Positions 12,696-57,960 of a stretch of DNA of 64,000 nt are shown piece after piece. A model generated the notes under the pieces. That model made no database searches, was not told the DNA's origin, and worked only from the letters and a program-made list of their open reading frames with translations. A program made the position numbers and the translations under genes. Origin of the DNA: an uncultured Nitrososphaerales archaeon (GTDB taxonomy: Archaea; Thermoproteota; Nitrososphaeria; Nitrososphaerales; Nitrososphaeraceae); the NCBI GenBank assembly GCA_963713605.1, contig CAVQMO010000001.1, positions 1-64,000 on the forward strand. Reading direction: 5' to 3'. Position 1 is the first letter of the stretch. Every line of letters starts with the position of its first letter.

Positions 12696-13142
12696 AAGAT
12701 GCCTTCTATGATAAATGACCAGTATATTCGCCGACCGTGGGTCGTCGTTTCTAGAATCTCTTCGATTATTCATAATATTATGTGCAATCGTTTAGCACAA
12801 AGCAAGTGGTATGGCCCTCCGCCTCTACCTTCATGTTTCTTGACATAGCTACTTCCAATCATTATGAGTTCCCTGCAGTGATAGCACAAAAACGCCTGTT
12901 GCCTTTCCCCCTGTATTCAGGTTCGCTAACAGTCGTTCATACCCGAGATGATTTAAGGTCTTATTATTTAGATGATTGTTTAACTTTCGTCTAGCATTTC
13001 ATATAGATGAAGTACAATCTTTCCTTCGTAAAACCTTAGAGGCTATGACCCGCACTTATCTTCTTCTCTACTTGGTAATCCACATCTTGATAAGTTAGGT
13101 GCAGCACCAGCCATTTTAACTTGATCTAGTAGCAGATGATGA

Positions 13143-13430
13143 TTAAATGAGGTTTAACTGCTTAGCGCATGCGACATGGTATGGTTTTCCCCCACTGGCC
13201 TTCTTAGCAAACGGTTCTCCCAGCTCAATGACTAAGCGACACTTATGGCATGGTATGCCATTAGCGGTCCTTGGCTTAAGTGATGCTATGCTGTAGTAGT
13301 AGCCTAACGCATAAGAAGTTGAATTAGCAGCAGCGGTGCGCCCCTTGCCATAAAGTTGATTACGAGCATGTCCAATCATCCTGGTTACATCAATCTGCTG
13401 CAGTGGTTTGACGATGACACGTCTAGGCAT
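13143..13430 (-). CDS. Small Zn-finger protein (CxxC...HxxC)
   Basis: CHKCRLVIELGEPF...YHVAC. Confidence 0.55.
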   Translation of the reverse strand: MPRRVIVKPLQQIDVTRMIGHARNQLYGKGRTAAANSTSYALGYYYSIASLKPRTANGIPCHKCRLVIELGEPFAKKASGGKPYHVACAKQLNLI

Positions 13431-14805
13431 TTATTTAGTGTCATAGCCGCCATCCACCATAATAATACCATTCGCTGGTTCGTTAGAAGAAGAAGAAGAA
13501 GCTAGGCCATAGCCACCTCTTTACATCTGATATCCGCATCGGTGATGTCTTCAGCCCCTTCAAAGGCAGATACTTACTGACATCATTTCCTATGTCATTA
13601 TGTTGTGGGTGCTATGTTGACCCTTGATCTGTGGGGCTCTGTTTTTGATCGTTTCCCTTGCCGTTAGAACATTAAGAATCATGTCGAGTTTTGCGTCCAT
13701 CGTTCGAAGCAATGGTATAAAACAATCATAGGTACTTTTACTTGCCATTTTATCTATTCCTCTGGAGCCACCTTAAGGCCTACCTCTTTTAACTGCCTGC
13801 GAGTACTTAAGTACGATTCTATCGCCTCTCTTCAGAACCAGTCACAATAAAGGAGGCTTTCATTCTTGCGTATGGTCTTCCTTCCCTTTTTCTGTGAGTT
13901 CAACATGAAACGAAATCTCTGAGTGATATCCTTCGTACGAGTTGAGCAGTTTATTGGGGAGACTATATCCTACCCGCATTCTTACTTCCTCTTTGTCACA
14001 TGCGATATCGTACCACTTTCACGCTCTCTGCTGCTACAAGTTCTCTCTGCTTCTTGTGCTTCTTTCTTTGCTTCTAAGTAGTGAATCAAACTACTGAGAA
14101 ATGAAGGATACCTAAAATTCCACTGGCTAATAGAACGATAACCAAACCAAATTTTACTTTTGACATTTTCTTCACTTTACAGCCACTTAATAATAAACTA
14201 GAATGATGACAATGAATACATTTGATGCAGCCGCTGCCAATTGCAATTTGCTGTATTCGGCTTCGCCTTCCGGTGATTGAATAAAACTATTTGCCATGTT
14301 TTAAAAATAGTCCCTCATACATTTGATTTTCTTCATAACATGATTTATGCATTAGATCCCTACCCGGCAAGATCATTATTTTGTTATTATCATCCTGTTC
14401 GATTCGATGCCTACAGACTTGACATACTCCCATTTCTTTTATCGCCTTATTTACCCATTCATCTCATCTATTGACTGCTCACGTTCTGCCATTGCTGCTG
14501 TTGTCGGTAGTAATGCTAGTACACTAGGTATTATGATACCGAGTGCCACTATGATTGTTATTACTTTTAGTATCATTAATGGGGGTTATATGCCGTCATT
14601 AGTAAGATGGTGGTTTGATATTTAGCTCTTAATCTGCTTATTATATTAATAGTAGACTTTCTTACTTGAACAAGGCAAATGGAAAGGATGAATAACGATG
14701 AGAAAAATAATCGAGTATCAGTTTATCGCTTGTGATAAAGTGAGAGTTCTAGACCAACGCCTTCTAATGCTGTAAATGATGTCAATTAGATAGCATGCTA
14801 TCTCT

Positions 14806-15283
14806 TAAATGGAGGGGGCTGCTGTTGGAGTAACGATTACGATAGTGAGGGTGGAACCACTAGGGACGGCGGCGTTGTTGCAGTCCATAAGCAGAATATC
14901 GCCTGGTAAACCTATTCCTGGTCCCTCTCCAAACGGAATACATGAACCTAATGCTCTGACCCAAAGGCTAACTCAGGACTCTCCCAAGTTATATAATAGG
15001 AAGTTCCGGGAATATGATTAGCGATTCCACTCAGGAGAACGCCAGTGGTACCAAGGGGTTGACCATTTGGATTGCATCCACGTTGACCTGGTTCTATTTT
15101 TGTTGCAATCTGATTCGAAGGTCCAGCCGGTCCTTCTGGTCCTTCTGGTCCTTCTGGCCCCGCTGGCCCTGTTGCTCCAGTTGCTCCGACTGGCCCCGCT
15201 GGCCCTGTTGCACCTGGCCCACCTGGCTCACCATGTTCGCCTTGAGGTCCTGCTGGTCCTTGCGGTCCAATCGGTCCTGGTGC
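14806..15283 (-). pseudogene. Collagen-like Gly-X-Y protein remnant
   Basis: 15277-15116 reads [54 protein letters not shown] (18 triplets); in-frame TGA just upstream and no start codon. Confidence 0.8.
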
Positions 15284-15679
15284 TCACGGATAAACTCTTA
15301 GATTCGCAACCAATAATAAGACGGGTAATAGACCAAATATAACACCTAAAGGAAGATGGTATCCGTCATTATTCACCAAAGATTAAGAACGTTACTAGTT
15401 AGAGCATATCATTTTTTCACGAATGGAATCACTAGCGATATAGCGCTAGTGCATAGCGTAAATGAACATCCAAGTTATTTCCACTACTCTAACTGGACAG
15501 GGATCTTTGTTTTCGTGAATTTGGCACTGGTATTTAATTTGAAGGGAGAAGCACCATTTATCCTATAGTATTTACCATCGTAGTGGATAGAAGGATATTC
15601 ATGCAGAGGGAATAGTGATAGATTCAGACCCTATAGATGTGCTTAATATTCTAGGTCAAAAACAGAGTCATTAAGTGAT

Positions 15680-15976
15680 TCAGTTCTTTCTGGAAATGTG
15701 ATCATTTGTCTGGTATTTTGATAGTTGATGATATTCTATGTCCACGACGAAGCCATATTTTAGGCTCTTATCAGCTGAAATTATTCTGCAGTCAGGTAAA
15801 ATGAATTGATCCCCATCACTATTAACGATTGCAATTTTGCCGTTCAAGTCTGTCATTATATGTCCTATTAGAAAACCATCTAGTGGTAATACGGGCTTAC
15901 TTCGGTGAGAAATTGATTTCGGCGAACGTGGTGAGTGTTCTTGTGCTAGTTGTTGGTCAGTTAGTATTCCAGTCAT
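15680..15976 (-). CDS. Hypothetical protein
   Basis: 98-aa ATG ORF with globular composition. Confidence 0.45.
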   Translation of the reverse strand: MTGILTDQQLAQEHSPRSPKSISHRSKPVLPLDGFLIGHIMTDLNGKIAIVNSDGDQFILPDCRIISADKSLKYGFVVDIEYHQLSKYQTNDHISRKN

Positions 15977-16253
15977 TCCATATTACACTATACGGCCAAA
16001 AAAAATAAACATGACTAATCAGTCAGTTTTATTTCTTAGGATCTTTAGTGATAATTAAAGCACCACAGGAGCGAAAGATGCCCCAATAATTCAGCACAGC
16101 TCGATTATTGGTTCAAGTTACTTTGAAACCTCAAACTCAAGCGTAGGTCTATCAATGCCGCAAAAGGGATCTGTAGAAAAACATACAAAGAAAATAAAAA
16201 GTGGCAGTAGTTTAGAAAGGGTTAATTTTGCATCCGATGACTTAACTCACTAC

Positions 16254-28747: not shown

Positions 28748-30265
28748 TCATTTCCCAAGATTCGGTGCGACATATCCCTTGAGATCTTCCCCAATTATTA
28801 CGTCCTCTTCTGGGGGAATATAGTCAACTACTCCATACCTGCCAGGATATTTCTTTTGGGTTGCTAAGGCTACTACAACAAAGATTATAACAGATATTAC
28901 TGGAGGTATCAATGTATCTAGTCCTGCCAATTCTACTGGAATTATGAAGAATAAGGTCAGTCTAAGTAATGAACCAACAATGAGCGAAGACAATGCTGCA
29001 GGTGTATTGGCCTTCTTCCAGAATATACCAAATGTTAGTGGGGCCCACGCACCCGCAAATACGATATCAAATGCAAGGATAAGATAAACACCGGGCTGCG
29101 GGATCAGGTATGCAAGTACAAAAGCAGCTATCATCATAGGGATAGTGAAAATACGTGTTACCATCAACAATTTCCTGTCCCCCAATCCTGGGCGTTTTAG
29201 TATCCTTTTCAAGATATTTCTTTGAACAATGTTCCTCGACATGACACTGGAAATGGCGAGCAAGCCACCATTTGCAGTTGACATCGAGGCGCCAAGAACG
29301 CCCATGAGTAAGGCTAACCCAATAACGAATGGAACATGGTTAATCGCTAGATCAGGGTAAGCCGTATAGGGGTCAACCAGATCTGGCAAAAAGTATAGAG
29401 CCACTATCCCCATCATGCTTGTGGGAATAATGGTCAAGATTGTTAGTCCCGCTCCCATGAAGGCACCTCTACTCGCTGTTTTTCCATCCCTAGCTGCGAA
29501 CACTCTTTCCATGAAATCCAATGCTACAATGTCTCCTAGTGCCAAAGCCATGATTCCAGCCCAATTAACAAGGGCACCATTGCCCATATCCGTTAGTCCA
29601 GATAAATCCAAATACCCAGGTGGTGCGCTCCCAAGAATAGTATCAAAACTGACGCCCGCAAAGCCTCCTGCGAAGAATAGAAAAGCTGCCCAAAATGCAA
29701 CTATTGCCAAATAAATTTGAAAAATGTCCGTATATGCCGAGGAGAATAGACCCCCTGCGTAGGTATAGATTAGCACGATTATGGCACCAATTAGCATTGC
29801 CCATATGAAGTCGATATGTAAAACGACCGACAAGATGTAACCGGTTGCCGCAAAATTGCCTGCCACTAATACTACGAAGCTTAATCATCATGAGAATTCC
29901 AGAAATTCCTTCACTCGCATTGCCATATCTTCGGAAATAGAAATCTGGCAAAGTAAGCATTGACATTTTATTAAGTTTCTTTGCATAAAATATTGCAGTT
30001 AAGATGAGACATGGCAGCAAGTCCGATTGGAATGGCAGCTCCTGACCAGAATCCAAATTGATAAACAAGTGATACGTTTCCTAGTGAAGAATTACCATCG
30101 ATGGATTGAGGCAGCCAGCATAGTACCCACGAAGAAAAGCGGTAAGCTCTTGCCAGCGACCATAAACCGTTTGCTGCTTTTCTTTACAAGCTTCGAGGCG
30201 AGAGTCCCAACGATAACGGAAAGCGCCAAAAATGCGATGACCCCAATCGCATATCCGTCTACCAA
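28748..30265 (-). CDS. Sodium:solute symporter (SSS) family transporter; frameshifts near 30110, 30012 and 29880
   Basis: FMVAGKSLP, TLPDFYFRRYG, YTYAGGLFSSAYTDIFQ, GASMSTANG; TTG start with GGAGG upstream. Confidence 0.9.
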
Positions 30266-30622: not shown

Positions 30623-32327
30623 ATGGATCCTCGCACGGAGCAGCTGTTCGGTAATGGATTTAGCAGAAGTCAAGAGGGCGAGAGTCGTCGATATAATCTT
30701 TTGGCAGCTGCATTGATCTCAAACCTTATTAAAAATTCACTCGGTCCATGTGGATTGGAAAAAATGTATATCGATATAATGGGAGAGATTACTGTGACAA
30801 AAGATGGTTCAGCGATATTGAGAAAACTTGATGTTGAACATCCCGCAGCAAAAATTCTGATCGAGGCCGCCAATGCAGTAGATAATGAGGTAGGAGACGG
30901 TACTACTTCTGTTGTCATCTTATCGGGAGAATTATTATCCAAGGCACAAGAATTGTTGTTCTCTGGAATCGCTCCATCAATTATAATTGATGGGTATCTC
31001 AAGGGCCTAGAAATCTCACTTCAAACTCTCGATCAAATTTCAGTATCCTCAACAAGTATACACAGAGAAGTAATGAATAAGCTAGCCGAGACTTGTCTCC
31101 AAACTAGGTCTATCTCCGATGTAGTTGCTAGAGAAAATACCAGTGCTGCTGGTTTGGTTGTTGAGGCCGTTTGGAGTATAGCAGATTTAAGGAACAAAAC
31201 AATAGATGTAGATGATATCAAAATTGAGGAAAAACTGGGTAACTCTTCCGATACTACCCTAATAAGAGGCACGGTGATTGACAAGACCTTTGAAGCTTCA
31301 TTCGGGGCCAAACAGATTAAAAACGCCAAGATACTTTTGACTAACGAAGAACTCGATAGAAGCAGGACCCGGACTAATTCTGAATTAATTATATCATCAT
31401 TTGATCAGCTAGAGAAATACTACAGATCTGAATATGAACTGCTCGAAATAAAGGTACAGAATATTATAGATTCTGGTGCAAATATCGTGATTTCTCAGAA
31501 GGGAATAAACAAAATTGTCCAACAGCACTTATCAAGAGCAGGTGTTATCGCCCTTCATAGAGTCAAAGAAAATGACATACTGTGGTTGGAGAAATCAACA
31601 GGTGCAAGTATTGTTAAAGATTTGAATGACCCCATACCATCTAATAACTTGGGATACGCAGGGAAAGTGTACCAAAAATTGGTTGGCGATGATAAGATGG
31701 TCTTTATAGATGAATGTAAAAATCCCAAATCAATGACTCTCCTATTGAGGGCAAACTCAAAAAGAGGTACTCGATGAATACCACCGTTCTGTATTGGATG
31801 GATTTGCTGTTCTAAGAGATTATATTCTATCACCTCGAATAGTTGGAGGGGCTGGAGTTACTGAAATGAAGGCCGCAGCTATCATTAGAGATAGAGCTAG
31901 ACAAATTAAGGGCGGTGCTCAACTCGTTCTTCAGAAATTCGCTGAAGCATTAGAGGAAATACCAACCACACTTGCTAGAAATGCTGGGATGGATACCATC
32001 AACACGATAGCCCAATTGAGATCTAAACACTTGCCTGCTAATAGCAAGATTAGGTGGTATGGAATTGATCCAAAAAACAGAAAGGTGGAGAATATCATTT
32101 CGTCAGTAATAGAGCCATCCATTGTTAAAGAACAAGTTCTTAAAACAGCTGTGGAGGTAACCTGCATGTTACTACGAGTGGACGATGTCTTAATGGCTAA
32201 ACCAAAAATGCAGGCTCATACACACGCTGATGGTGTAGAACATTCACATCCAGGAGGAGACAAGAGGCATGATCACTATTTCGATCGACTAGGAAAACAA
32301 CAACGGCCCATGCATCACTATTATTGA
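30623..32327 (+). CDS. Divergent group II chaperonin (thermosome-like) with His-rich C-terminus; frameshift near 31765
   Basis: SLGPCGLEKM, TKDGSAIL, VGDGTTS, LARNAGMD, VIEP..VK, LRVDD; tail HTHADGVEHSHPGGDKRHDHYF...MHHYY. Confidence 0.9.
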
Positions 32328-34444: not shown

Positions 34445-35536
34445 CTATGTCAAATATAGTACAGCTAAATAGGCATCAGAAAAAAAGCGCTTGTAATCGA
34501 ACTTTACAATTAAGTTAAGACAAGGCGTCAATAGCAGAAATAATTCACATATGGTTTTCAGACATTGTTGACATAATTCAACTGGAGTATTCCCATTTAT
34601 ACTGACAGTTAGGGAACTGGCAATGGGTAGAGAATTCGTGGGCGAGGATGTGGATATAGAGGGTGACGATTCTGTAGGCGAAGACATTGAGTCACTTGCT
34701 TCATCAACTCCTTTTAATTCTGATTGTACATTTTCTCCATTCTGAAGAGAGCCCCGTATTTGATTTCGGCCTGTTGTTCTGGGATCTCCGGGATTAGTAT
34801 CTAAGACAAAGAAACCATGTCTGAAAAATGTATCTTTGTTCTTGTCGGAGACTGAAGCGACGTACCATACTATAGGATCTCCACCCTTGGTCAAGACACA
34901 GTTTTTACAGAGTTCGATGTCCGGCATCCCCGGAGTTAACTTACCGGTGCCCGCCGCACGTGCTGTTGCGATCTGTTCAGGTGGATTTAATAGGGTAAAT
35001 ATGTCATCCGGATCTTCTTCGCCGGGGTTATCTTTGACTATTGCTATCGCAATTGTTTGGCCTGGAACTAAGTTTGGAGTTCCCGGCGAAACTCCGGATA
35101 GGGGTTCACCCGTTGACGGCTCAACCATGGGATCTATCCTTACAGGAATCTTTGATTCTCCCCACCTCCAGTGCATATGAACACAATCGAACTCAGAAAA
35201 ATATTTGCAGCCAGGTATGAAAATTCCTTGGTTAGAATGGGCTGTGTGAATATTGTCATAGTCGCGTGGCTGACCATCTTTTACTGCTAAAAAAGCTACT
35301 TCATTTATTATCATAGGTTGATCTCCTATATTATTAATCAAACTTGAACCAAAAGTATCAGCATCCCTGATTCTGGCTAATCCAGTATCAGAACCATAGT
35401 CCAGTTTATAAAAGGCAGCGAATCTTTTTAGATTCGGATTGGGTGAATTTGGATCATACCAATCATAGCTTACCTTGGGAACGAACCTGTAACATTCGAT
35501 GGAATTGGGTTCACAGTTATCCACTTCCTTGGACAC
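34445..35536 (-). CDS. Hypothetical protein, probably extends upstream through frameshifts
   Basis: 363-aa ORF with DCVHMHWRWG and FFRHGFF motifs. Confidence 0.6.
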   Translation of the reverse strand: MSKEVDNCEPNSIECYRFVPKVSYDWYDPNSPNPNLKRFAAFYKLDYGSDTGLARIRDADTFGSSLINNIGDQPMIINEVAFLAVKDGQPRDYDNIHTAHSNQGIFIPGCKYFSEFDCVHMHWRWGESKIPVRIDPMVEPSTGEPLSGVSPGTPNLVPGQTIAIAIVKDNPGEEDPDDIFTLLNPPEQIATARAAGTGKLTPGMPDIELCKNCVLTKGGDPIVWYVASVSDKNKDTFFRHGFFVLDTNPGDPRTTGRNQIRGSLQNGENVQSELKGVDEASDSMSSPTESSPSISTSSPTNSLPIASSLTVSINGNTPVELCQQCLKTICELFLLLTPCLNLIVKFDYKRFFSDAYLAVLYLT

Positions 35537-36001
35537 AATAACGATATCATATGCTATACTCAGGCTGCTAGTATCTCCATCATCCGTCTTGAAATCTACT
35601 CCGGAAAGTAGAGCTCGTCAACTATTTTTTTTAGAGTAGTCTGGCACAACTGTCATAACCTTATTACGAATTCTGTAGTTCTACTCGTCCTGTATGAATG
35701 TACCTCTTCCGGTGCTGCACTTGGTGTACTCCCTGTACCAAGGACTCCGAAACCACCCTTAAAGAGAGTATATGGATATTATGTATAATGCACGAGAGTA
35801 TATGTATACTACCAATATTAGGATATCATAAAGCGGGGTTGAATCATGTAGATTACGAATTTATGCTGTTTTATAATAATGATTATTATTCATGTAACAA
35901 GTCTTGTTCAATAAAATAGGATTTGTACCAGTTATCCCATTAATGGCTTTCTTCGCTAGGAGCCTGCGAAAATGAATGCTTGAGTTTGAGACGTCAGTCG
36001 G

Positions 36002-36256
36002 TTAAAGAGGTTTCATCACGTCTATTAGCCTAGCATTAGTTATGATGCCATCTTGTTCTCTAATTGTAAGATCGACCACGTATTGAAGGTTATTTAACAT
36101 AAAAGTTGTCTGTGCGTCCCATTCCTCTCTTTTTTGTTCATTAGGGAGTGAGAATAATGATCTTAGTTTTAAATTTGTAATGTCTTTTCCATACAGTGTC
36201 TCAATTGCTCCTACTGCTCGAGATTGTACATCACTTTCATTTCTAACCGCATTCAT
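36002..36256 (-). CDS. Small hypothetical protein
   Basis: 84-aa ATG ORF (WDAQTTF...Y.VDL.I.E.DG.ITNARLID). Confidence 0.65.
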   Translation of the reverse strand: MNAVRNESDVQSRAVGAIETLYGKDITNLKLRSLFSLPNEQKREEWDAQTTFMLNNLQYVVDLTIREQDGIITNARLIDVMKPL

Positions 36257-36666
36257 TGCGTATTCCTATAAGGAGAGTAACTATAAAAAAGTATTGATTT
36301 ATCATTCATTTTATAATGTTTAGCCATCAGTATAGTATTATACAATGCGTAGATTACGTTAGTATATCATTTGACAAATCTCTTTATATCTTCAATTTAC
36401 GAAAATCTAATTATTAGAGAATTATGGTCATCATAGTTCCAAAAAGGTCGGTTTAGCTTAAAATCAATGAATTCAATGTATAAAACTTAGATGCAATTGA
36501 CGAGACCAGTATCATGTCCTGCTCGTGCCGTTAATTTCCATTATCTATGAATATCTGATTCTAAATCTAGGAACGTATGGCTTGTGTATAGTCGATGAAG
36601 CGATTCGTAAACTACTTAGAAATACTTAAAAACATTATACGTGTCCTAATATTTAGCGAATAAAAG

Positions 36667-37791
36667 ATGGGAATGGAATTCTATGGGGATTCGTACAAAG
36701 GTAATGATGAGCCAATTTTTGTTGGTATACCAACTTTTCTGAAGCTACCTTGGCTTAGATCCCGTCAGGAATTAGAAAAAATAAAACCAGATGTAGCTAT
36801 AATAGGAGAGCCATTCGATTTTGGAACAACGATACGTCCTGGCGCGAGATACGGGCCACGCGCAATCCGTGCAGCCTCAACCGTGCCATCTCCTCCCTAT
36901 GAACATTTCAACATTGAAACGGGAGTGGATCCTTTTGGTGTATTTAAAACTGTAGACTATGGTGACGTTGTAGTGTCTCCTGGCGATGTCATTGAATCAC
37001 ACAGAAGAATGACAGACAAGGTCAAAGAGGTTCTGGATATCGACGGGATTCCTGTAATGTTAGGTGGAGATCACTCAATTACTTTCGCTAACGTGAGAGC
37101 ATTTGCGAAAAAGTACAAAAACATTGGTATGATTCATATTGACACTCATGCTGATTGCGCCCCTCAAGGGCTTTGCGGATTCAAATATGATCATGGGGCG
37201 CATATAAGAAGAATTATGGAGCTGGGGTGTCTAAAAGGCAAAAATTATACACTTATTGGCCCAAGAGGATACTGGCCTGGACCTTATCTCTATAAGTGGA
37301 TGGCTGACCAGGATTTCCAGTGGTTTACAATGCTGGATGTAGAAGAAATGGGAATAGATGCAATTGCTAAGGAAGCAGCCGATAGGGCAAATGATGATGT
37401 CGATGCGGTCTATATAAGCTGGGATATCGATACGTTTGACCCCGCTTATGCGCCAGGTACTGGAGAACCAGAACCTAATGGCCTTACTTCAAGAGAGGGA
37501 ATGAGATTGATGCGATTATTGTCTACTTCTTTTGATCCAGACAAGTTTGCATTTGATTTGGTAGAAGTGGCACCCAACTATGATGTAAGTGATGTCAACT
37601 CCTACAACGGAGGAATCACTTCCGGCTTGGCAAATCGACTAATTGTCGAACTTTTGGCTGGACTTTCACTCACGAAGAAAGGGGAAAAGGAAGGAAATCC
37701 TGTAAGACCAAAGTTCTATCGCGGGAAGGGACATACTTATGACTTTGGTAACGGTCCTAAAGCAGTGCCCCCAAAAAGAAACAATCGATGA
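36667..37791 (+). CDS. Ureohydrolase of the agmatinase/guanidinobutyrase family
   Basis: RPGARYGPRAIR, GGDHS, DTHAD, SWDIDTFDP, PGTGEPEPNG, DLVEVAPNYD; metal-binding motifs intact. Confidence 0.95.
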   Translation: MGMEFYGDSYKGNDEPIFVGIPTFLKLPWLRSRQELEKIKPDVAIIGEPFDFGTTIRPGARYGPRAIRAASTVPSPPYEHFNIETGVDPFGVFKTVDYGDVVVSPGDVIESHRRMTDKVKEVLDIDGIPVMLGGDHSITFANVRAFAKKYKNIGMIHIDTHADCAPQGLCGFKYDHGAHIRRIMELGCLKGKNYTLIGPRGYWPGPYLYKWMADQDFQWFTMLDVEEMGIDAIAKEAADRANDDVDAVYISWDIDTFDPAYAPGTGEPEPNGLTSREGMRLMRLLSTSFDPDKFAFDLVEVAPNYDVSDVNSYNGGITSGLANRLIVELLAGLSLTKKGEKEGNPVRPKFYRGKGHTYDFGNGPKAVPPKRNNR

Positions 37792-38171
37792 TAGATATTA
37801 AAGTCTTAGTGCGTGGGGAAATTGATACTCCTTCATTCGTAAGGATATTCCAATATCCTGATAAGGAAGAGGAATCGATATTTTTCAATTCCGTAGCGTC
37901 GATCAAGAAAAAGATTGAAAGGGGGCTCAAGATCAATGCCAACGAAACACTTGCCATTTTTTGTGCGTATGTTATCGAACAAATGAGAAAGCACAAATCT
38001 CAGGACGAAATCGAAAATGCTGCAAAAGGCATTATTTCAAGTGACCAAGCGTTGATCGGTGTTCCAGAAACTTTGAGAGAAATGAGCTTTGACGTAATTA
38101 TTGATGATTTTCCAGAACAGCGAATAAAATTCCTCGAACCTATGAAGATTAGTAATTATATGATGACTTGA
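37788..38171 (+). CDS. Divergent urease gamma-subunit-like protein
   Basis: ERGLKINANET vs UreA RGLKLNYPEA; ISSDQALIGVPETL vs LTRDDVMEGVPEMI; ATGA overlap with the ureohydrolase stop. Confidence 0.75.
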   Translation: MIDIKVLVRGEIDTPSFVRIFQYPDKEEESIFFNSVASIKKKIERGLKINANETLAIFCAYVIEQMRKHKSQDEIENAAKGIISSDQALIGVPETLREMSFDVIIDDFPEQRIKFLEPMKISNYMMT

Positions 38172-38397
38172 ACAAATTATAGGCACGACTCCACAAGTCA
38201 TAACCCATCGGTTGAAAAACCAATTCTTCATAAGACTAGAAAGAATACTTACGATAAACCAATTGCCGAGTATAACGGACATGCTTACTTGATCTTAGTA
38301 TTATCAAAGGCCAGGATCGTACGGCAATACAAAGTATCACATTGAATACCTGCAAGTCATATATAGCTTAAACTGCAAATTTCTTATCGCTCAAACT

Positions 38398-39504
38398 ATG
38401 GAATCTATTGTATTCGCGGATGGTAGCTATCAATCTTTGATGTGGATTGCTTTTGGGTTATTCGTAGGGATAGCCTTAGCCTTAGACTTAGGGATGATTG
38501 AGGGTATAAGGCGAAGAATATCTTCAAACGATAAGAACTCCATAGACAACAATGTACAGCTTCTAAGTCAGCAGGAAAGGAGCAAGAAAACATTCGAACA
38601 TGCACTGCGTTGGACTATAATCTGGATTTCGCTAGCTGGCGTATTTGCAGGTCTAATTTTCGTTAGTATGGGATATGACAAATCACTTTTGTTCCTAACA
38701 GGATACGCTATTGAAAAATCATTAAGTGTAGATAACATGTTTGTATTTGTGCTAATATTTTCATCACTTGGTATTCCATACATTTATCAGCACAAGGTAT
38801 TGATGCTTGGAATACTGAGCGCAATTGGACTGAGAATAGCCCTCATTCTCGCAGGAATTTCTCTGCTTGAATCATTTCATTGGATGATATACATTTTTGG
38901 TGGGCTATTAGTATTCACCGCAATACGAATGATAGTAGAAAAAAAGGAAAAGAAAATAGAAATTGAAAAGAACATTGCAGTAAGAATTTTGAAAAAGTTT
39001 ATTCCTATCGAGTTAAAAGGTGATACCGGCGACAAATTTCTTCATCGAGCCTCTGATGGCATAATGTATGCAACCCCAATGCTAATTGCGCTAGTGATTA
39101 TCGAGATGACAGATTTGGTGTTCGCCCTTGATTCTATTCCTGCAATCCTTGCGATCACTACAGACTCATTTCTAGTAATAACCTCTAATATATTTGCCAT
39201 ATTGGGTTTGCGGAGCCTGTACTTCCTTCTCGCGGGGATGATAGACAAATTTTACTATCTTAAGCCAGGATTGGCAGCAATACTGCTCTTCATAGGGGTC
39301 AAGATGTTAATATCCGAGTTTTACGAGATACCCGTACCTACTTCCATAGCTGTTATTTTTGGAATTCTCGGATTAGCAATTATGCTCTCGTTTGTTAGAA
39401 TCAAATATGTTTCGGTTAAGGAAGGCAGAAACAAACCAGACGGAGATGTTTCACTCGACAAGAACGATTTTGATGAGAATCGGACAAACAAGTTCTCGGA
39501 TTAG
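38398..39504 (+). CDS. TerC/Alx family metal-homeostasis membrane protein
   Basis: GYAIEKSLSVDNMFVF, QHKVL, DLVFALDSIPA, TSNIFAILGLRSLYF. Confidence 0.93.
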   Translation: MESIVFADGSYQSLMWIAFGLFVGIALALDLGMIEGIRRRISSNDKNSIDNNVQLLSQQERSKKTFEHALRWTIIWISLAGVFAGLIFVSMGYDKSLLFLTGYAIEKSLSVDNMFVFVLIFSSLGIPYIYQHKVLMLGILSAIGLRIALILAGISLLESFHWMIYIFGGLLVFTAIRMIVEKKEKKIEIEKNIAVRILKKFIPIELKGDTGDKFLHRASDGIMYATPMLIALVIIEMTDLVFALDSIPAILAITTDSFLVITSNIFAILGLRSLYFLLAGMIDKFYYLKPGLAAILLFIGVKMLISEFYEIPVPTSIAVIFGILGLAIMLSFVRIKYVSVKEGRNKPDGDVSLDKNDFDENRTNKFSD

Positions 39505-39591: not shown

Positions 39592-40992
39592 TCACTTACC
39601 TGTTATTTTATTAAGTATTGATAATCCAATTTTTGCAGCGAAGTGATCCTTGATGTTATTTCCAAAGGTAACATTCTGCTCTCCCTTTTTTGCAACAAAA
39701 CCTATCACCGTTGCTCTAAAGTTATGTCTTCGCAATTCATCGAGGATTATATTTGAAATATCTTTAGTTGCGATAATGGTGTGACATCCATTTATCGCAG
39801 CAGTTGGGTTCATGACAAGAGCTTCATTTGAGAGTATCCTTGCAATTTCCTCAAACATCATTGGAATGTCATTGACCACAAGATGACAATTACTTATACG
39901 GGCAAGCTTCCATAGGCCAAGAATACCGTCACTACCTAATGGATGAACGGCTATTATGTTCTCGTTATCCTGCAGGGGGGTCCCAAATACAGGACAATAT
40001 TTTGAGATTATTTTTCCAAGTGAAAAATGTGGTTCACAGAGATTCTTCATACATTCATCTTTTGCAGATACCAGCTCTTGATTGTTGATGCCTTTGTTTT
40101 CTAAAGTTGCAATAATCTTCTCATCTATATGTGCTAGCGTATAAAGACTTAATGCCATCAATGAACCGAGAGGATTAGTGACAATAATCTGCATGGTCTC
40201 TTTAATCTGCTCATAATAAGTAGGTAGTTCTTTGAAGGTGTTAGCAATCCCTGTTGCCCCAAAGAACAGCTTTCCTATTTTAAGAGAACTATAATCATCC
40301 ATCTTGAGATTGTATCTAGATGTAAATGCGTCAAGGTTTTTTCTGATGGTATCAAGTGAAGATTCTTGAGGGGAATCATATATGGGATAGAGGTCAAACC
40401 CTGATGTGCATCCAAGCAAATTCAAATGATCGATGCACCGTGTCATAGGAATGTCTGTATGAAGCTCAGAATCGGGCTCTAGTGTAGGATCAATTACGTG
40501 AGCAGTAGCATTATCGGCAACCGTAAAACCTACCTTATCCCCTCTGTGCAAACCTATGTAGTCCAGCAATGCAAATTGTGCATCTCTATGCTCTGTGACT
40601 GCAGACGTGCTCCTATTAATCGAAACTTTACATCGGAAATTTTTGAAGAAATTATTGAGAATCTCCGTAAAGAATGTAGAATCGTCCTCTATCTCCTTAT
40701 GTATCCGGAACAACGCAAGGGAGTGTTTAAGATCTACCTCGTTTTCAACCGCAGGTTCACGGATGGAAAAGACCCTTCTTGTAAGATCAGGTGTTTTCCC
40801 ATCTGCATAAGGGAATGCGTCGAACCAATTTGTATCCAACTTTATAGAGCTACGTTTCATTTCTTTTACCGCTTGATCAAGTTTCCAACTATCAACTTCA
40901 TTAGAACCAGTAGTAATCCACCTCAAAGGGTCGAACCCCAATTGTCGATATTCTTCTATCCGCCGCCAAAAATCTTCAGTCAACACTGACAT
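39592..40992 (-). CDS. SelD-related (PurM/SelD superfamily) protein
   Basis: EEYRQLGFDP N-terminus, NATAHVIDP, YPIYD, KLFFGAT; resembles archaeal SelD-related putative sulfur-metabolism proteins. Confidence 0.6.
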   Translation of the reverse strand: MSVLTEDFWRRIEEYRQLGFDPLRWITTGSNEVDSWKLDQAVKEMKRSSIKLDTNWFDAFPYADGKTPDLTRRVFSIREPAVENEVDLKHSLALFRIHKEIEDDSTFFTEILNNFFKNFRCKVSINRSTSAVTEHRDAQFALLDYIGLHRGDKVGFTVADNATAHVIDPTLEPDSELHTDIPMTRCIDHLNLLGCTSGFDLYPIYDSPQESSLDTIRKNLDAFTSRYNLKMDDYSSLKIGKLFFGATGIANTFKELPTYYEQIKETMQIIVTNPLGSLMALSLYTLAHIDEKIIATLENKGINNQELVSAKDECMKNLCEPHFSLGKIISKYCPVFGTPLQDNENIIAVHPLGSDGILGLWKLARISNCHLVVNDIPMMFEEIARILSNEALVMNPTAAINGCHTIIATKDISNIILDELRRHNFRATVIGFVAKKGEQNVTFGNNIKDHFAAKIGLSILNKITGK

Positions 40993-44868: not shown

Positions 44869-46049
44869 TTGGACGACAGTAATACCGGAGCTTCTGATGA
44901 CGGTCTAAGCGATAGTGCTATGAATGGTTCATCTCAAGGTCGGGATAAAGGGTTGAACCTCGAAGGCAAGAAATTAAACGACTTGGAAGTATCAAAGAGA
45001 AATCGTAAGTTTTCCGAACATAGCAGCCTTGTGAGCGAAGGAATCATTGCAGGACAAAGAATTGCAAAAATATCCGTTGTTACTCTCATCAGCATTGGAA
45101 TTGTAGAAATTCTTACGGGATACTATAGTGGTAGTGTAGTAGCAACAGCAGACGGTATAGATTCTATGTCTGATGCTGCTATTTCATTTATTGTTCTATT
45201 AGGTCTGCGTATTGCTCACAAACCTGCTGACAAGAAATTTCATTTTGGATACCATAAGGTGGAAAGCTTGCCGCATTGATGGCTGCTATAGGAATGGTAG
45301 CCATAGGTATTGTAATATTTTACAATTCATATCAAGCTATTTTGCACCCACATGAAATAAGGCAACCAATTCTGACGATGGTTGTTTTGGCTGCAGCTGG
45401 TGCAATCTCATTACATAGGGCTTTTCAGATGAGGAATATTGCAAACAAGTACAATTTGTTATCATTGAGAACTGATGCTAAGAATTCGATAAAAGATGGT
45501 TCAGCATCAATAATTGGATTTCTGAGCGTTTTGATAGCTTCCCAGTTTGGATTTTTGCAAATGGATGCCATAGGCGGGATGATAATTGCAGGCTACATTT
45601 TTTCGGTATCTTACATCTCATTAAAAAAGTCATCCTTGATACTTGTAGATTCGTGGCAGAACCCCAAACTCACTGAACTTATTAAGCAACACATCGAACA
45701 AAAGGAGTTTAGAATTAGCCAAGGCCCGGAACTATTACAAACTAAAGTCAAGGTTCGCTCGGTGTTGCTTAGACCAGCCGGAATGGTCTCCCAAGCTGAA
45801 GTGCATATTGAAGTAGATGGTGATAAGCCGCTAAAAGACGTGGAATTGATATGTCTTCAGGTTGAAATGGAGATCCGTTCAAAATTTCCAGATCTAGAAA
45901 GAATTTCGATAATTCCGCATTCATCGATCGCTAAGCCAATGACAACACAATCTACTTCATTCAGGAGATGGATTTCGGTACCTGATATATTGCATCAGCA
46001 TCGGCAACAACAACAACAACAAAAGCACAAGCACGAGCATGGGAAGTAA
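44869..46049 (+). CDS. Cation diffusion facilitator, frameshift near 45270; His/Gln-rich tail
   Basis: ADGIDSMSD, KPADKKFHFGYHKVE, DAKNSIKD; C-terminus HQHRQQQQQQKHKHEHGK. Confidence 0.88.
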
Positions 46050-55757: not shown

Positions 55758-57960
55758 TCATTCTTTATCTATGAATTCGTCTGGATTTGGTGGGTCTGGA
55801 TTTAGACCCTTTCTTTTTCGTATGTCTGCGACTAGACTTTTTAAAATGGATTGGGGGACTGGCTGCCAGGATTTAAAATAGGTACTCCACAAAGCTTTTC
55901 CGGCGGTACCACCACGCATAACCTCAGAAAGGTCGAACGTTTCAGATGCAGGAACTTCGCCTTGGATAATTGTGATAAGTCCCTTCTGATCCACGTTAAT
56001 CAATTTGCCTCTCTTACTCGAGAGAATTCCTGCTACTGTACCAATCTGTTCCTGAGGACATTTTACCTCAATGCCAAGAATCGGTTCGAGTAAGGTGGGA
56101 TCTGCTATCAGCATTGAGCCAAGCATGGACCTACGTGTTGCCGGCATTAACTGAGCTAACCCTCTATGTGCAGGATCCTCGTGAGGAACAAAGTGATGTA
56201 ACACAAATTTGACTCCTCTCACGGTCTCATGTGCAATTGGTCCAGAATGTGTCACATCGTCAAACCCTGACCTAATGGAATCCATGGATTCTTGAATAAA
56301 TTGAACACCTTTTGTCTCATCAATAAGCATGTTTCCAGTTACGTCTAGAGCAGCGACGCTACGTGCCTCATCTGCACTCCATCCTTTTTCACGAAGGAGC
56401 CGAGCCATTTCCTTCTTGTCCATATCTTCTTTAATTTGCCCGGTCCTTATCATATCAATAATATCCTCATTTAGTGGCTCCACTCGCATGAAGATTTTGT
56501 TATGCTTATTAGGAGATTTGCTCATGATAGGGCTTGTTTTATATCTGCTGGTTTCACGATAGTTGATTAATGGCTGAGTCGTAGTTATTTCCAAACCTGC
56601 TTCCTGCAAAAGAGAGGTAGCAATTTCCAGATGAAGAACCCCCATGCCTGCCATCAGCGTTTCACCTGACTCCTCATTGATTTTTACAATCAGATTAGGA
56701 TCTTCAACTGTGATCTTCCTTAGGGCTTCAACTAATTTAGGCAGATCTCTTGGATGCTTAGGTTCGACTGCTATCGTTACAACTGGCTCTGAAACATATT
56801 TAATTGATTCAAAAGGCTGGAATTGACTTCACTGAAGAAATTGTTTCACCTGCGACAGCATAATCCAATCCAAGTAGTGCTGGAATATTTCCTGCAGGCA
56901 ACATGTTTACTAGTTCGCGGGTATTTCCCATATAGATATTCACGGATTGAATTTTTCCTGGCCGCTTTGCATCGATCAGATATGCTTCATCTCCATCTTT
57001 CACGGTACCTGAGAAAAGTCGTCCTGTTGCTATTCTACCTGCCTGAGGATCAACATTAATCGTTGTCACCATCATTACTACTGGACCTTTGTCATCACAG
57101 GAAATGAGAGATTTACCGAGTTCGGAATTCAAATCGCCAGGCCAAATTTTGGGAATTCGATACCGTTGAGCAACGTGAGGAGGTGGATGGTGTTCAACTA
57201 CCATCCCGAGAACGGCTTCATGCAGTGGTGCCCTCTCTGCCAGGTTCTTGATTGCTGAAGGATCATCAGAGGTATATGCATCGTAGACATCCTTAAAACT
57301 GACTCCTTTTTTCTGTGCAACTTTGAAATTAAATCCCCATCTATCCTTGGCTGAGCCAAAAGCAACGCTATTTCCTTGGATACCGACCTTCCATTTTTCT
57401 TTGATCTCAGGCTCTGCGTAAATATCAATCAAATGATTGAAGTCGGCGATGATATTAGATAACCACCTTTGCATTGCTGCGGCATCCAATCTCAATTCCT
57501 TTACCAGTCTGTCAATCTTGTTTATGTACAGGACGGGTCTTACCCTCTCTTCTAAAGCCTGCCTCGTCACTGTCTCGGTCTGTGTCATTATCCCTTCGAC
57601 GGAGTCTGAAACCACAACCGCACCGTCAATCGCCCGCAGCGCACGGGTAACCCTTCCAGTAAAATCTATGTGCCCGGGTGTATCAATCATGTTAATCACG
57701 TACTCTTTCCCCTCTTTTTCGTAGTACAAAGTAACATTAGCCCCTCTAATTGTCATCTGCCTATTCTGCTCAAGCTTCATTGAATCTAATGCAAGAGCCT
57801 GCCCTGCAATTGACGGCGAGATAATTCCTGATGCCGCCAAGAGGCTATCACTCATAGTAGTTTTGCCATGATCAACATGAGCAATGACCCCAAAATTGCG
57901 AATCTGCTCTTTATTTCCTATAATTCTAAGGATATCCTGGGTCGATTTGAATTTAGGCAT
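55758..57960 (-). CDS. fusA: Archaeal elongation factor 2, frameshift near 56812
   Basis: AHVDHGKTT, DTPGH, NKID, GMGVLHLE, HEDPAHRG (diphthamide loop). Confidence 0.97.

Follow-up and report, generated by a model that had tools for sequence, protein, structure and literature searches.

Among the genes on a 64,000-nucleotide stretch of DNA from an uncultured Nitrososphaerales archaeon (GenBank assembly GCA_963713605.1, contig CAVQMO010000001.1, positions 1 to 64,000; hereafter the window), we have studied an overlapping pair that encodes an arginase-family ureohydrolase (UH) and a urease-gamma-like protein of 127 amino acids (UGL). UGL has the fold of the urease gamma subunit (UreA), has diverged strongly from it and is under purifying selection, and its gene lies directly behind that of UH, to which it is translationally coupled, within a conserved archaeal gene neighbourhood. 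We conclude that UGL is a strongly diverged urease gamma paralogue and a real, selected gene, and that it does not qualify as a subunit-grade UreA. A functional partnership with UH is the best-supported reading of its role because of the strict adjacency and coupling of the two genes, their retention together where no urease genes lie nearby, and the selection acting on them. We see about an even chance that UGL binds UH as its dedicated partner, without catalytic activity of its own, in a step that produces urea. The elements on which this account is built are the following.

36667..37791, + strand: UH, a 374-amino-acid arginase-family ureohydrolase of the guanidinobutyrase/guanidinase-like branch (Pfam Arginase match, metal site and Protein Data Bank relatives)
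37788..38171, + strand: UGL, a 127-amino-acid diverged urease-gamma-fold protein (Pfam Urease_gamma match, AlphaFold2 and Foldseek results, own clade)
37788..37791, + strand: ATGA overlap of the UH stop codon (TGA) and the UGL start codon (ATG), a signature of translational coupling, read directly from the sequence
37788..37862, + strand: N-terminal extension of UGL (residues 1-25), a predicted beta-hairpin with a conserved G-E-x-D-T loop that is not in canonical UreA

An earlier sequence-only reading of this DNA had drawn attention to a 127-amino-acid open reading frame (ORF) that overlaps the stop codon of a ureohydrolase gene by ATGA, and both the ORF listing and direct reading of positions 37788-37791 confirm it.

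UGL as a diverged urease gamma paralogue

UGL matches the Pfam family Urease_gamma (PF00547) with 43.4 bits, where the gathering score is 23.9 (E 4.5e-11), and the match places residues 25-106 of the protein on positions 5-87 of the 99 in the profile. A phmmer search of the Protein Data Bank (PDB) returned urease gamma chains for all of the best 13 matches (best E 1.7e-08), and an hhalign comparison of the UGL family with 15 canonical UreA sequences laid UGL residues 26-119 on UreA residues 7-99 with a probability of 98.5% (E 1.6e-15, 24% identity). We also obtained an AlphaFold2 model of UGL from 27 family members, with a mean predicted local distance difference test score (pLDDT) of 88.6 and a predicted template modelling score of 0.83. 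When this model was compared with the PDB by Foldseek, the 17 best matches were all urease gamma chains or domains (11 of them at E <= 0.001), and the target-normalised template modelling score to free-standing gamma chains of ~100 amino acids was 0.78-0.83, with a root-mean-square deviation of about 3 A over ~99 residues. Given the Pfam, phmmer, hhalign and Foldseek results, the match between UGL and UreA is far beyond chance. The structural match to UreA on which the sequence-only reading depended is thus present in the AlphaFold2 model and the Foldseek comparison.

However, UGL is not a UreA of the canonical kind. It fails the NCBIfam equivalog cut-offs for UreA, scoring 41.8 against 123 for NF009712 and 37.6 against 82.3 for TIGR00193. 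Hallmarks of UreA had been named in the sequence-only reading, and both ERGLKINANE (residues 44-53) and IGVPET (residues 90-95) are there, but of the 37 columns without variation in 15 canonical UreA sequences, just 6 have their residue conserved in 70% or more of 27 UGL sequences, and the blocks EGARDG..V and QVEATFxDGTKLVTVH have been lost. Likewise, the Glu-Pro pair that had been described as terminal exists as LEP at residues 116-118, which is close to the C-terminus but not at it. The N-terminal extension (residues 1-25) noticed in the same reading is real and is conserved across the family. AlphaFold2 predicts that it forms a beta-hairpin with strands at residues 2-9 and 17-23 (block pLDDT 85-92), and among the 27 UGL sequences G10 is invariant and D13 nearly so. 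No His or Cys is conserved in the UGL family, and on this ground we rejected UGL as a metal carrier.

Set beside the UreA chains of Klebsiella aerogenes (2kau chain A) and Sporosarcina pasteurii (5a6t chain A), UGL has the same fold, retains the LN..E and V..GVPE motifs and the C-terminal P(I), and is, by our comparison, likewise small and non-catalytic. It differs in being only 20-23% identical to free-standing gamma chains, with 31 of the 37 invariant columns lost, in carrying a 25-amino-acid N-terminal hairpin that UreA does not have, and in forming a separate clade. The genes are also placed differently: that of UGL follows a ureohydrolase gene, whereas ureA precedes ureB and ureC.

With the window protein as query, we recovered 118 relatives of 61-100% identity, nearly all of them 127 amino acids long, and the source labels of UGL relatives read either 'urease subunit gamma' or 'hypothetical'. 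A profile built from 27 diverse members reached 1460 proteins at 90% clustering and, in a library of 1.84 billion representatives, 420 proteins at E <= 1e-3, 99 at E <= 1e-10 and 37 at E <= 1e-30. Most non-fragment matches down to about 1e-10 align from the first positions of the profile, and canonical UreA proteins come in around E 1e-8 to 1e-9, aligning from profile position ~26. All named members and Atlas clusters belong to the Nitrososphaerota, with full-length conservation that spans the Nitrososphaerales and the Nitrosopumilales; as far as seen here, the family is confined to ammonia-oxidising Nitrososphaerota. In an unrooted maximum-likelihood tree of 34 UGL and 27 UreA rows, in which the UGL branches are long, the two groups are split by a branch supported at 100/100, and the archaeal UreA proteins taken from the same loci as UGL fall inside canonical UreA, apart from UGL.

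Sequence identity across the loci described below is 30-87% for UGL (mean column identity 55%) and 80-99% for UH relative to the window protein (mean 91%). By the Nei-Gojobori method, the ratio of nonsynonymous to synonymous substitution rates (dN/dS) is 0.12-0.20 between the window UGL and eight relatives, with a median of 0.21 over 36 pairs. The corresponding values for UH are 0.009-0.031, with a median of 0.014 over 28 pairs. Both genes are under purifying selection, and UH is extremely so.

Adjacency to an arginase-family ureohydrolase

A single scan of species-representative genomes with UGL peptide patterns yielded 32 loci, which we designate by L numbers; 30 are archaeal and two (L031, L032) are canonical bacterial ure operons. 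In each of the 30 archaeal loci, the gene directly upstream of UGL, in the same orientation, is that of UH, which is truncated at a contig end in L007, L019 and L023 and carries a frameshift in L005. The co-occurrence of UGL and the ureohydrolase, which the sequence-only reading had expected, is therefore without exception among these loci, and the genes either overlap by 4 nucleotides or are at most 22 nucleotides apart. When the window is counted with the 30 loci, 17 of 31 junctions have the 4-nucleotide overlap (TTGA in L024) and the other 14 have a gap of 14-22 nucleotides.

The gapped junctions (L012-L015, L017-L021, L023, L025-L027 and L029) have features of their own. The conserved N-terminus of UGL begins there at CTG in 11 loci or at TTG in three (starts at L017:10001 and L012:4189, for example), and in several of these loci a stop codon lies just 2-3 codons upstream of that start. 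Gene callers choose a later ATG, and truncated database entries of 83 amino acids, which fall in the same 90% cluster, are consistent with this miscalled start. The arrangement suggests non-AUG initiation or termination-reinitiation at the gapped junctions.

UH itself matches the Pfam Arginase family (PF00491) with 267 bits against a cut-off of 22 (E 2.7e-79). The metal motifs of this family are GGDHS, DxHxD and SxDxD, and the corresponding ligands of UH (H136, D159, H161, D163, D253 and D255) are invariant in 24 sequences, with the binuclear-metal site intact. UH fails the NCBIfam agmatinase cut-offs (156.1 against 174.3 for TIGR01230 and 204.3 against 302 for NF002564). Its closest solved relative is the guanidinobutyrase 3nio (E 8.8e-51), followed by the guanidinases of Synechocystis (7esr, E 8.2e-49) and Nitrospira inopinata (9fek, E 1.4e-47), and the classical agmatinases in the PDB score below these enzymes.

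Because the nearest relatives of UH are guanidino hydrolases and its six metal ligands are invariant, we expect it to be a urea-releasing enzyme. Judging from its sequence, UH should act on some guanidino compound, which is not demonstrably agmatine and is unlikely to be free guanidine. Passages of one guanidinase study (PMC11410670) point to Thr97 and Trp305 of the Synechocystis enzyme, equivalent to Thr105 and Trp313 in N. inopinata, as residues of specificity, and also state that guanidine-degradation genes were not found in ammonia-oxidising archaea. In our alignments, UH has counterparts of the guanidinase Thr, His and Glu residues: T55 (in GTT), H176 (His222) and E300 (Glu344). It thus shares with GbuA (3nio) and GdmH (7esr/7oi1, 9fek) the metal ligands, the GTT Thr, and the catalytic His and Glu, but it has a conserved basic C-terminal tail of its own (residues ~330-374) that is absent from the solved relatives, and a UreA-like partner has been reported for none of those enzymes. 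That a ureohydrolase can consist of two different subunits is known from the metformin hydrolase MfmAB (8snf, 8ryi), a PDB relative of UH (E 2.4e-34). However, the second subunit of MfmAB is an arginase-family paralogue, whereas UGL has the urease gamma fold and not the arginase fold.

The conservation of UH is extraordinary, at 80% identity between Nitrosopumilaceae and Nitrososphaeraceae, with the basic C-terminal tail included. Over the same distances, two neighbouring genes show normal divergence, unlike UH: a conserved 84-amino-acid protein (hyp84) is 40-63% identical and a thermosome-type chaperonin 40-56% identical. An AlphaFold2 model of UH, made from a shallow alignment of near-identical sequences, has a mean pLDDT of 40, which is too low for the model to be used.

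The conserved neighbourhood and urease

Three further genes recur beside the UH-UGL pair. In the window they are found at the following positions.

36002..36256, - strand: hyp84, an 84-amino-acid protein conserved in 22 of the 30 archaeal loci, with a weak PepSY-like lead
28760..30262, - strand: SSS/SSF sodium:solute symporter gene, disrupted here (66% identity to the SSF protein of L017; Pfam SSF match on the remaining ORF)
30623..32327, + strand: thermosome-type chaperonin gene, split here into two ORFs (Pfam Cpn60_TCP1 match on both)

Among the 30 archaeal loci as fetched, the symporter and the chaperonin are each present in 25, hyp84 in 22 and ureABC in 12, and the loci that are missing the symporter, the chaperonin or hyp84 are mostly short or edge-limited. 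The 12 with ureABC are L012, L015, L017-L021, L023, L024, L026, L027 and L029 (L019 is cut within ureA), and in all of them the urease genes lie 2-4 kb downstream of UH-UGL. The link between the pair and urea metabolism that had been proposed from the window is therefore real. The description of UGL as an 'orphan', however, holds for the gene order of the window's own lineage and not for these 12 relatives, in which ureABC shares the neighbourhood. The window was also said to have no ureB, ureC or accessory genes, and this is borne out at its full 64 kb by Pfam scans and tblastn. No urease family other than that of UGL was found by Pfam in 46 window ORFs (eight around the pair and 38 of the 66 ORFs of at least 100 amino acids, with mostly overlapping ones omitted), and archaeal UreB, UreC, UreD, UreE, UreF and UreG queries from L017 and L024 had no tblastn match in the window at E <= 1e-6.

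In loci with ureABC, the usual order is symporter (-), UH, UGL, chaperonin (-), ureA, ureB, ureC and hyp84, as Pfam scans confirm for L017 and L024. The chaperonin gene alone stands between UH-UGL and ureABC (in L024, ureDGFE and one ORF). A canonical ureA is present in 11 of 11 loci with ureBC, and again in L019, which ends inside it. In these relatives, canonical ureA is a separate gene for 100 amino acids located 5' of ureB, and UGL stays behind UH. Because canonical ureA accompanies ureBC every time, UGL does not stand in for ureA.

The pair is also kept in loci with no ureABC in the fetched flanks (L001-L005, L007-L010, L011, L016, L022, L028 and L030). L011, L016 and L022 retain UH, UGL, the chaperonin and hyp84, and ureABC does not intervene among these genes. 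In the window-like loci L001-L005 and L007-L010, a TerC gene takes the place of ureABC downstream (L006 is too short to tell), and within 10 kb of the pair ureABC is also missing from the marine loci L028 and L030. Because the chaperonin stays with UH-UGL, the symporter and hyp84 even where ureABC is not nearby, as at L011, L016, L022 and the window-like L001-L005, L009 and L010, its client may not be urease, or not urease only. With regard to hyp84, identity across the 22 loci is 40-96% (other examples lie at L017:14808-15059 and L024:8544-8837). The protein has no Pfam or NCBIfam match, and an Atlas feature score of 0.90 to clusters named PepSY offers a weak lead.

Parts of this neighbourhood have been described before. 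Passages of Abby et al. 2018 (PMC5797428) note that an Hsp60 homologue is conserved in archaeal urease loci and propose that it stabilises urease, and passages of a second study (PMC11131427) report that urease is encoded in every NS-delta genome and that the SSS transporter gene of these genomes clusters with that of an 'agmatinase (SpeB)'. The neighbourhood is the same as ours, with the chaperonin and the transporter already noted. However, those passages contain no UreA-like gene, refer to UH as agmatinase and link the chaperonin with urease, whereas in our loci UH-UGL keeps the chaperonin, the transporter and hyp84 even without nearby ureABC. In our literature search, we came upon no title, abstract or passage in which a ureohydrolase is described with a UreA-like partner.

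A table for Nitrososphaera viennensis (PMC7785015, supplementary file 3) shows, beside the second urease set, a gene order that matches these loci. It lists an SSF protein (NVIE_014880), a 'putative arginase family protein' (NVIE_014910) and, after it, a 'conserved protein of unknown function' (NVIE_014920). These are followed by an Mnt-type ABC metal importer and a 'putative nickel-responsive regulator' (NVIE_014930-014970), and then by the thermosome gene ths1, the second urease set ureA2B2C2 and a hypothetical protein. The 'putative agmatinase' proteins in that table, of 271 and 287 amino acids, are encoded elsewhere in the genome. From the gene order and names given there, we infer that NVIE_014910 and NVIE_014920 are the orthologues of UH and UGL, and the importer and regulator entries hint that metal supply is organised within the island.

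Several other features of the window can be recorded. Besides the thermosome, it encodes a prefoldin, elongation factor 2 (EF-2) and mannosyl-3-phosphoglycerate synthase, and its closest relatives are Nitrososphaeraceae records. The UH and UGL reading frames are intact despite the interruption of several window genes, which are either pseudogenes or the product of assembly indel errors. The symporter frame (28760-30262, -) has in-frame stops and a garbled N-terminal third, the two chaperonin ORFs cover positions 1-346 and 357-490 of the Cpn60_TCP1 profile with ~52% identity to the L017 chaperonin, and a cation-efflux gene (44869-46049, +) and the EF-2 gene (55758-57960, -) are each split into two ORFs. 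Directly 3' of UGL is a gene for a TerC/Alx-family membrane protein (38398-39504, +; NCBIfam TIGR03718, 343.8 bits), and beyond it a gene for a SelD-related putative sulfur-metabolism protein (39592-40992, -; NF038049, 256 bits against a cut-off of 250). This order is kept in L001-L005 and L007-L010 where the flank suffices (L009 stops inside the SelD-related gene and L006 is too short). A region of ~3.5 kb (12700-16250) is without any ORF of at least 100 amino acids and includes a frame of collagen-like G-P-x repeats (14948-15283, -). With regard to structured RNAs, no riboswitch or other Rfam match was found at E <= 1 in positions 35500-38600 around the pair, and the whole window has no Rfam family at its gathering score and no tRNA.

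Possible roles for UGL

We envisage that UGL would be expressed from the UH transcript, usually via translational coupling, and that UH would release urea from a guanidino compound. UGL would then serve as a small subunit or adaptor on UH, much as UreA staples the urease trimer, and the two would constitute the urea-producing step of an archaeal module formed by the transporter, the ureohydrolase with UGL, the chaperonin and urease. The urea produced could subsequently be split by urease to yield ammonia. A structure prediction for the UH-UGL complex (alignments A3 and A4), run without controls, gave a score of 0.00 and a mark of 0.32 and speaks neither for nor against binding.

Despite our arguments for a partnership with UH, a number of observations weigh against it. 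UGL evolves ~10x faster than UH (mean dN 0.128 versus 0.013), and between clades UGL is 30-41% identical where UH is 80-94% identical. Because UH is almost invariant, such fast change in UGL is unexpected for a large tight interface. The net charge of UGL runs from -9 to +9 across the family, and we therefore rejected the idea that an acidic UGL pairs electrostatically with the basic tail of UH. No fusion of UH with UGL exists among the 99 family representatives at E <= 1e-10, the longest of which has 215 amino acids, and a Rosetta-stone link between the two was likewise rejected. The position of the guanidinase specificity Trp is taken by Glu267 in UH (PGTGEPEP versus PGTGWPEP). Furthermore, adjacency in 30 of 30 loci is conditional on UGL, given that the loci were retrieved by UGL patterns, and because they represent roughly six or seven clades, the independent observations are fewer than 30. 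Lastly, transcripts of the putative orthologues in N. viennensis are low and unequal, at 5.4 and 3.1 in the reads-per-kilobase-per-million columns of the table in PMC7785015, which we take as log-scaled.

The partnership can also be stated more boldly. UH and UGL might be a new kind of two-component guanidino-compound hydrolase, in which a urease gamma fold has been put to a new use and, rendered self-sufficient by the added hairpin, caps or staples a threefold UH assembly or tethers UH to urease. In concert with the SSS transporter, the chaperonin and urease, such an enzyme would let ammonia-oxidising archaea turn an organic nitrogen source not recognised so far into urea and then into ammonia. 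We put this scenario forward tentatively and regard it as somewhat doubtful.

Threefold symmetry underlies the architecture of ureohydrolases and of urease alike, and this counts in favour of a different proposal, the channelling idea of the sequence-only reading. UGL would be an adaptor that tethers UH to urease, either by docking on (UreABC)3 or by replacing its gamma subunit, and urea would be passed straight on. The occurrence of ureABC 2-4 kb downstream in 12 of 30 loci and the UreA fold kept by UGL are in keeping with such a role. Yet the 31 canonical columns that have been lost include the two most conserved blocks of UreA, and the additional N-terminal hairpin has no equivalent in canonical UreA. 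Moreover, the pair persists with the transporter, the chaperonin and hyp84 in loci whose flanks of up to 10 kb on each side lack ureABC (L001, L004, L005, L010, L016, L022, L028 and L030). We consider this form of the adaptor idea unlikely.

Next in our ranking, and again on the unlikely side, is the proposal that UGL belongs to the pathway of UH but does not form part of the enzyme as a stable subunit, acting instead as an assembly or maturation factor or a regulator that possibly links UH to the chaperonin or to metal-loading proteins. Rapid change beside an almost invariant enzyme would suit such a factor, as would a chaperonin gene nearby in 25 of 30 loci. According to passages of PMC11410670, guanidinase needs nickel, for which Synechocystis has dedicated loading proteins, and in the N. 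viennensis table of PMC7785015 the entries that separate the putative pair from ureA2B2C2 include a nickel-responsive regulator and an ABC importer for metal. However, UGL has no conserved His or Cys with which to bind metal, and urease accessory genes are absent from the window. In the relevant passages of PMC10121161, moreover, the polar contacts named between UreD and urease are those of the alpha and beta domains, although a figure legend also colours a gamma-domain surface.

UGL might instead be an alternative gamma subunit that replaces UreA under some conditions, with its position beside UH being incidental. Its membership of Pfam Urease_gamma and the label 'urease subunit gamma' given by automatic pipelines would favour this explanation. 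We judge it very unlikely, given that UGL fails the NCBIfam equivalog cut-offs, keeps 6 of 37 invariant columns and adjoins UH in 30 of 30 loci, while ureBC is present in 12 of 30 and is accompanied by canonical ureA every time. Finally, UGL might be a functionless ORF, either a ureA duplicate in decay or a product of chance, and its small size, its divergence and the several disrupted genes elsewhere in the window would fit. This notion is refuted by its dN/dS of 0.12-0.20, its full-length conservation across Nitrososphaerales and Nitrosopumilales, its 1460 relatives at 90% clustering and its confidently predicted fold.

If UGL does act as a partner of UH, as we favour, it would be, to our knowledge, the first known case of a urease structural fold recruited to a different metallohydrolase. 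There are also consequences for annotation. UH is among the most conserved proteins of the fetched loci and yet is routinely labelled 'agmatinase', despite missing the family cut-offs, and the automatic annotation of UGL as 'urease subunit gamma' inflates urease gene counts in metagenomes. Seeing UH-UGL as one module would correct both annotations, and it would reassign the chaperonin, the transporter and hyp84 from a 'urease locus' to a wider island for producing and consuming urea.

In soils and oceans, ammonia-oxidising archaea rank among the most abundant nitrifiers, and the range of organic nitrogen compounds available to them is still an open question. Our findings point to UH-UGL as an unstudied two-gene module in the handling of organic nitrogen by these nitrifiers. 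If the two form a two-component hydrolase, surveys limited to canonical guanidinase and agmatinase genes would have missed this route.

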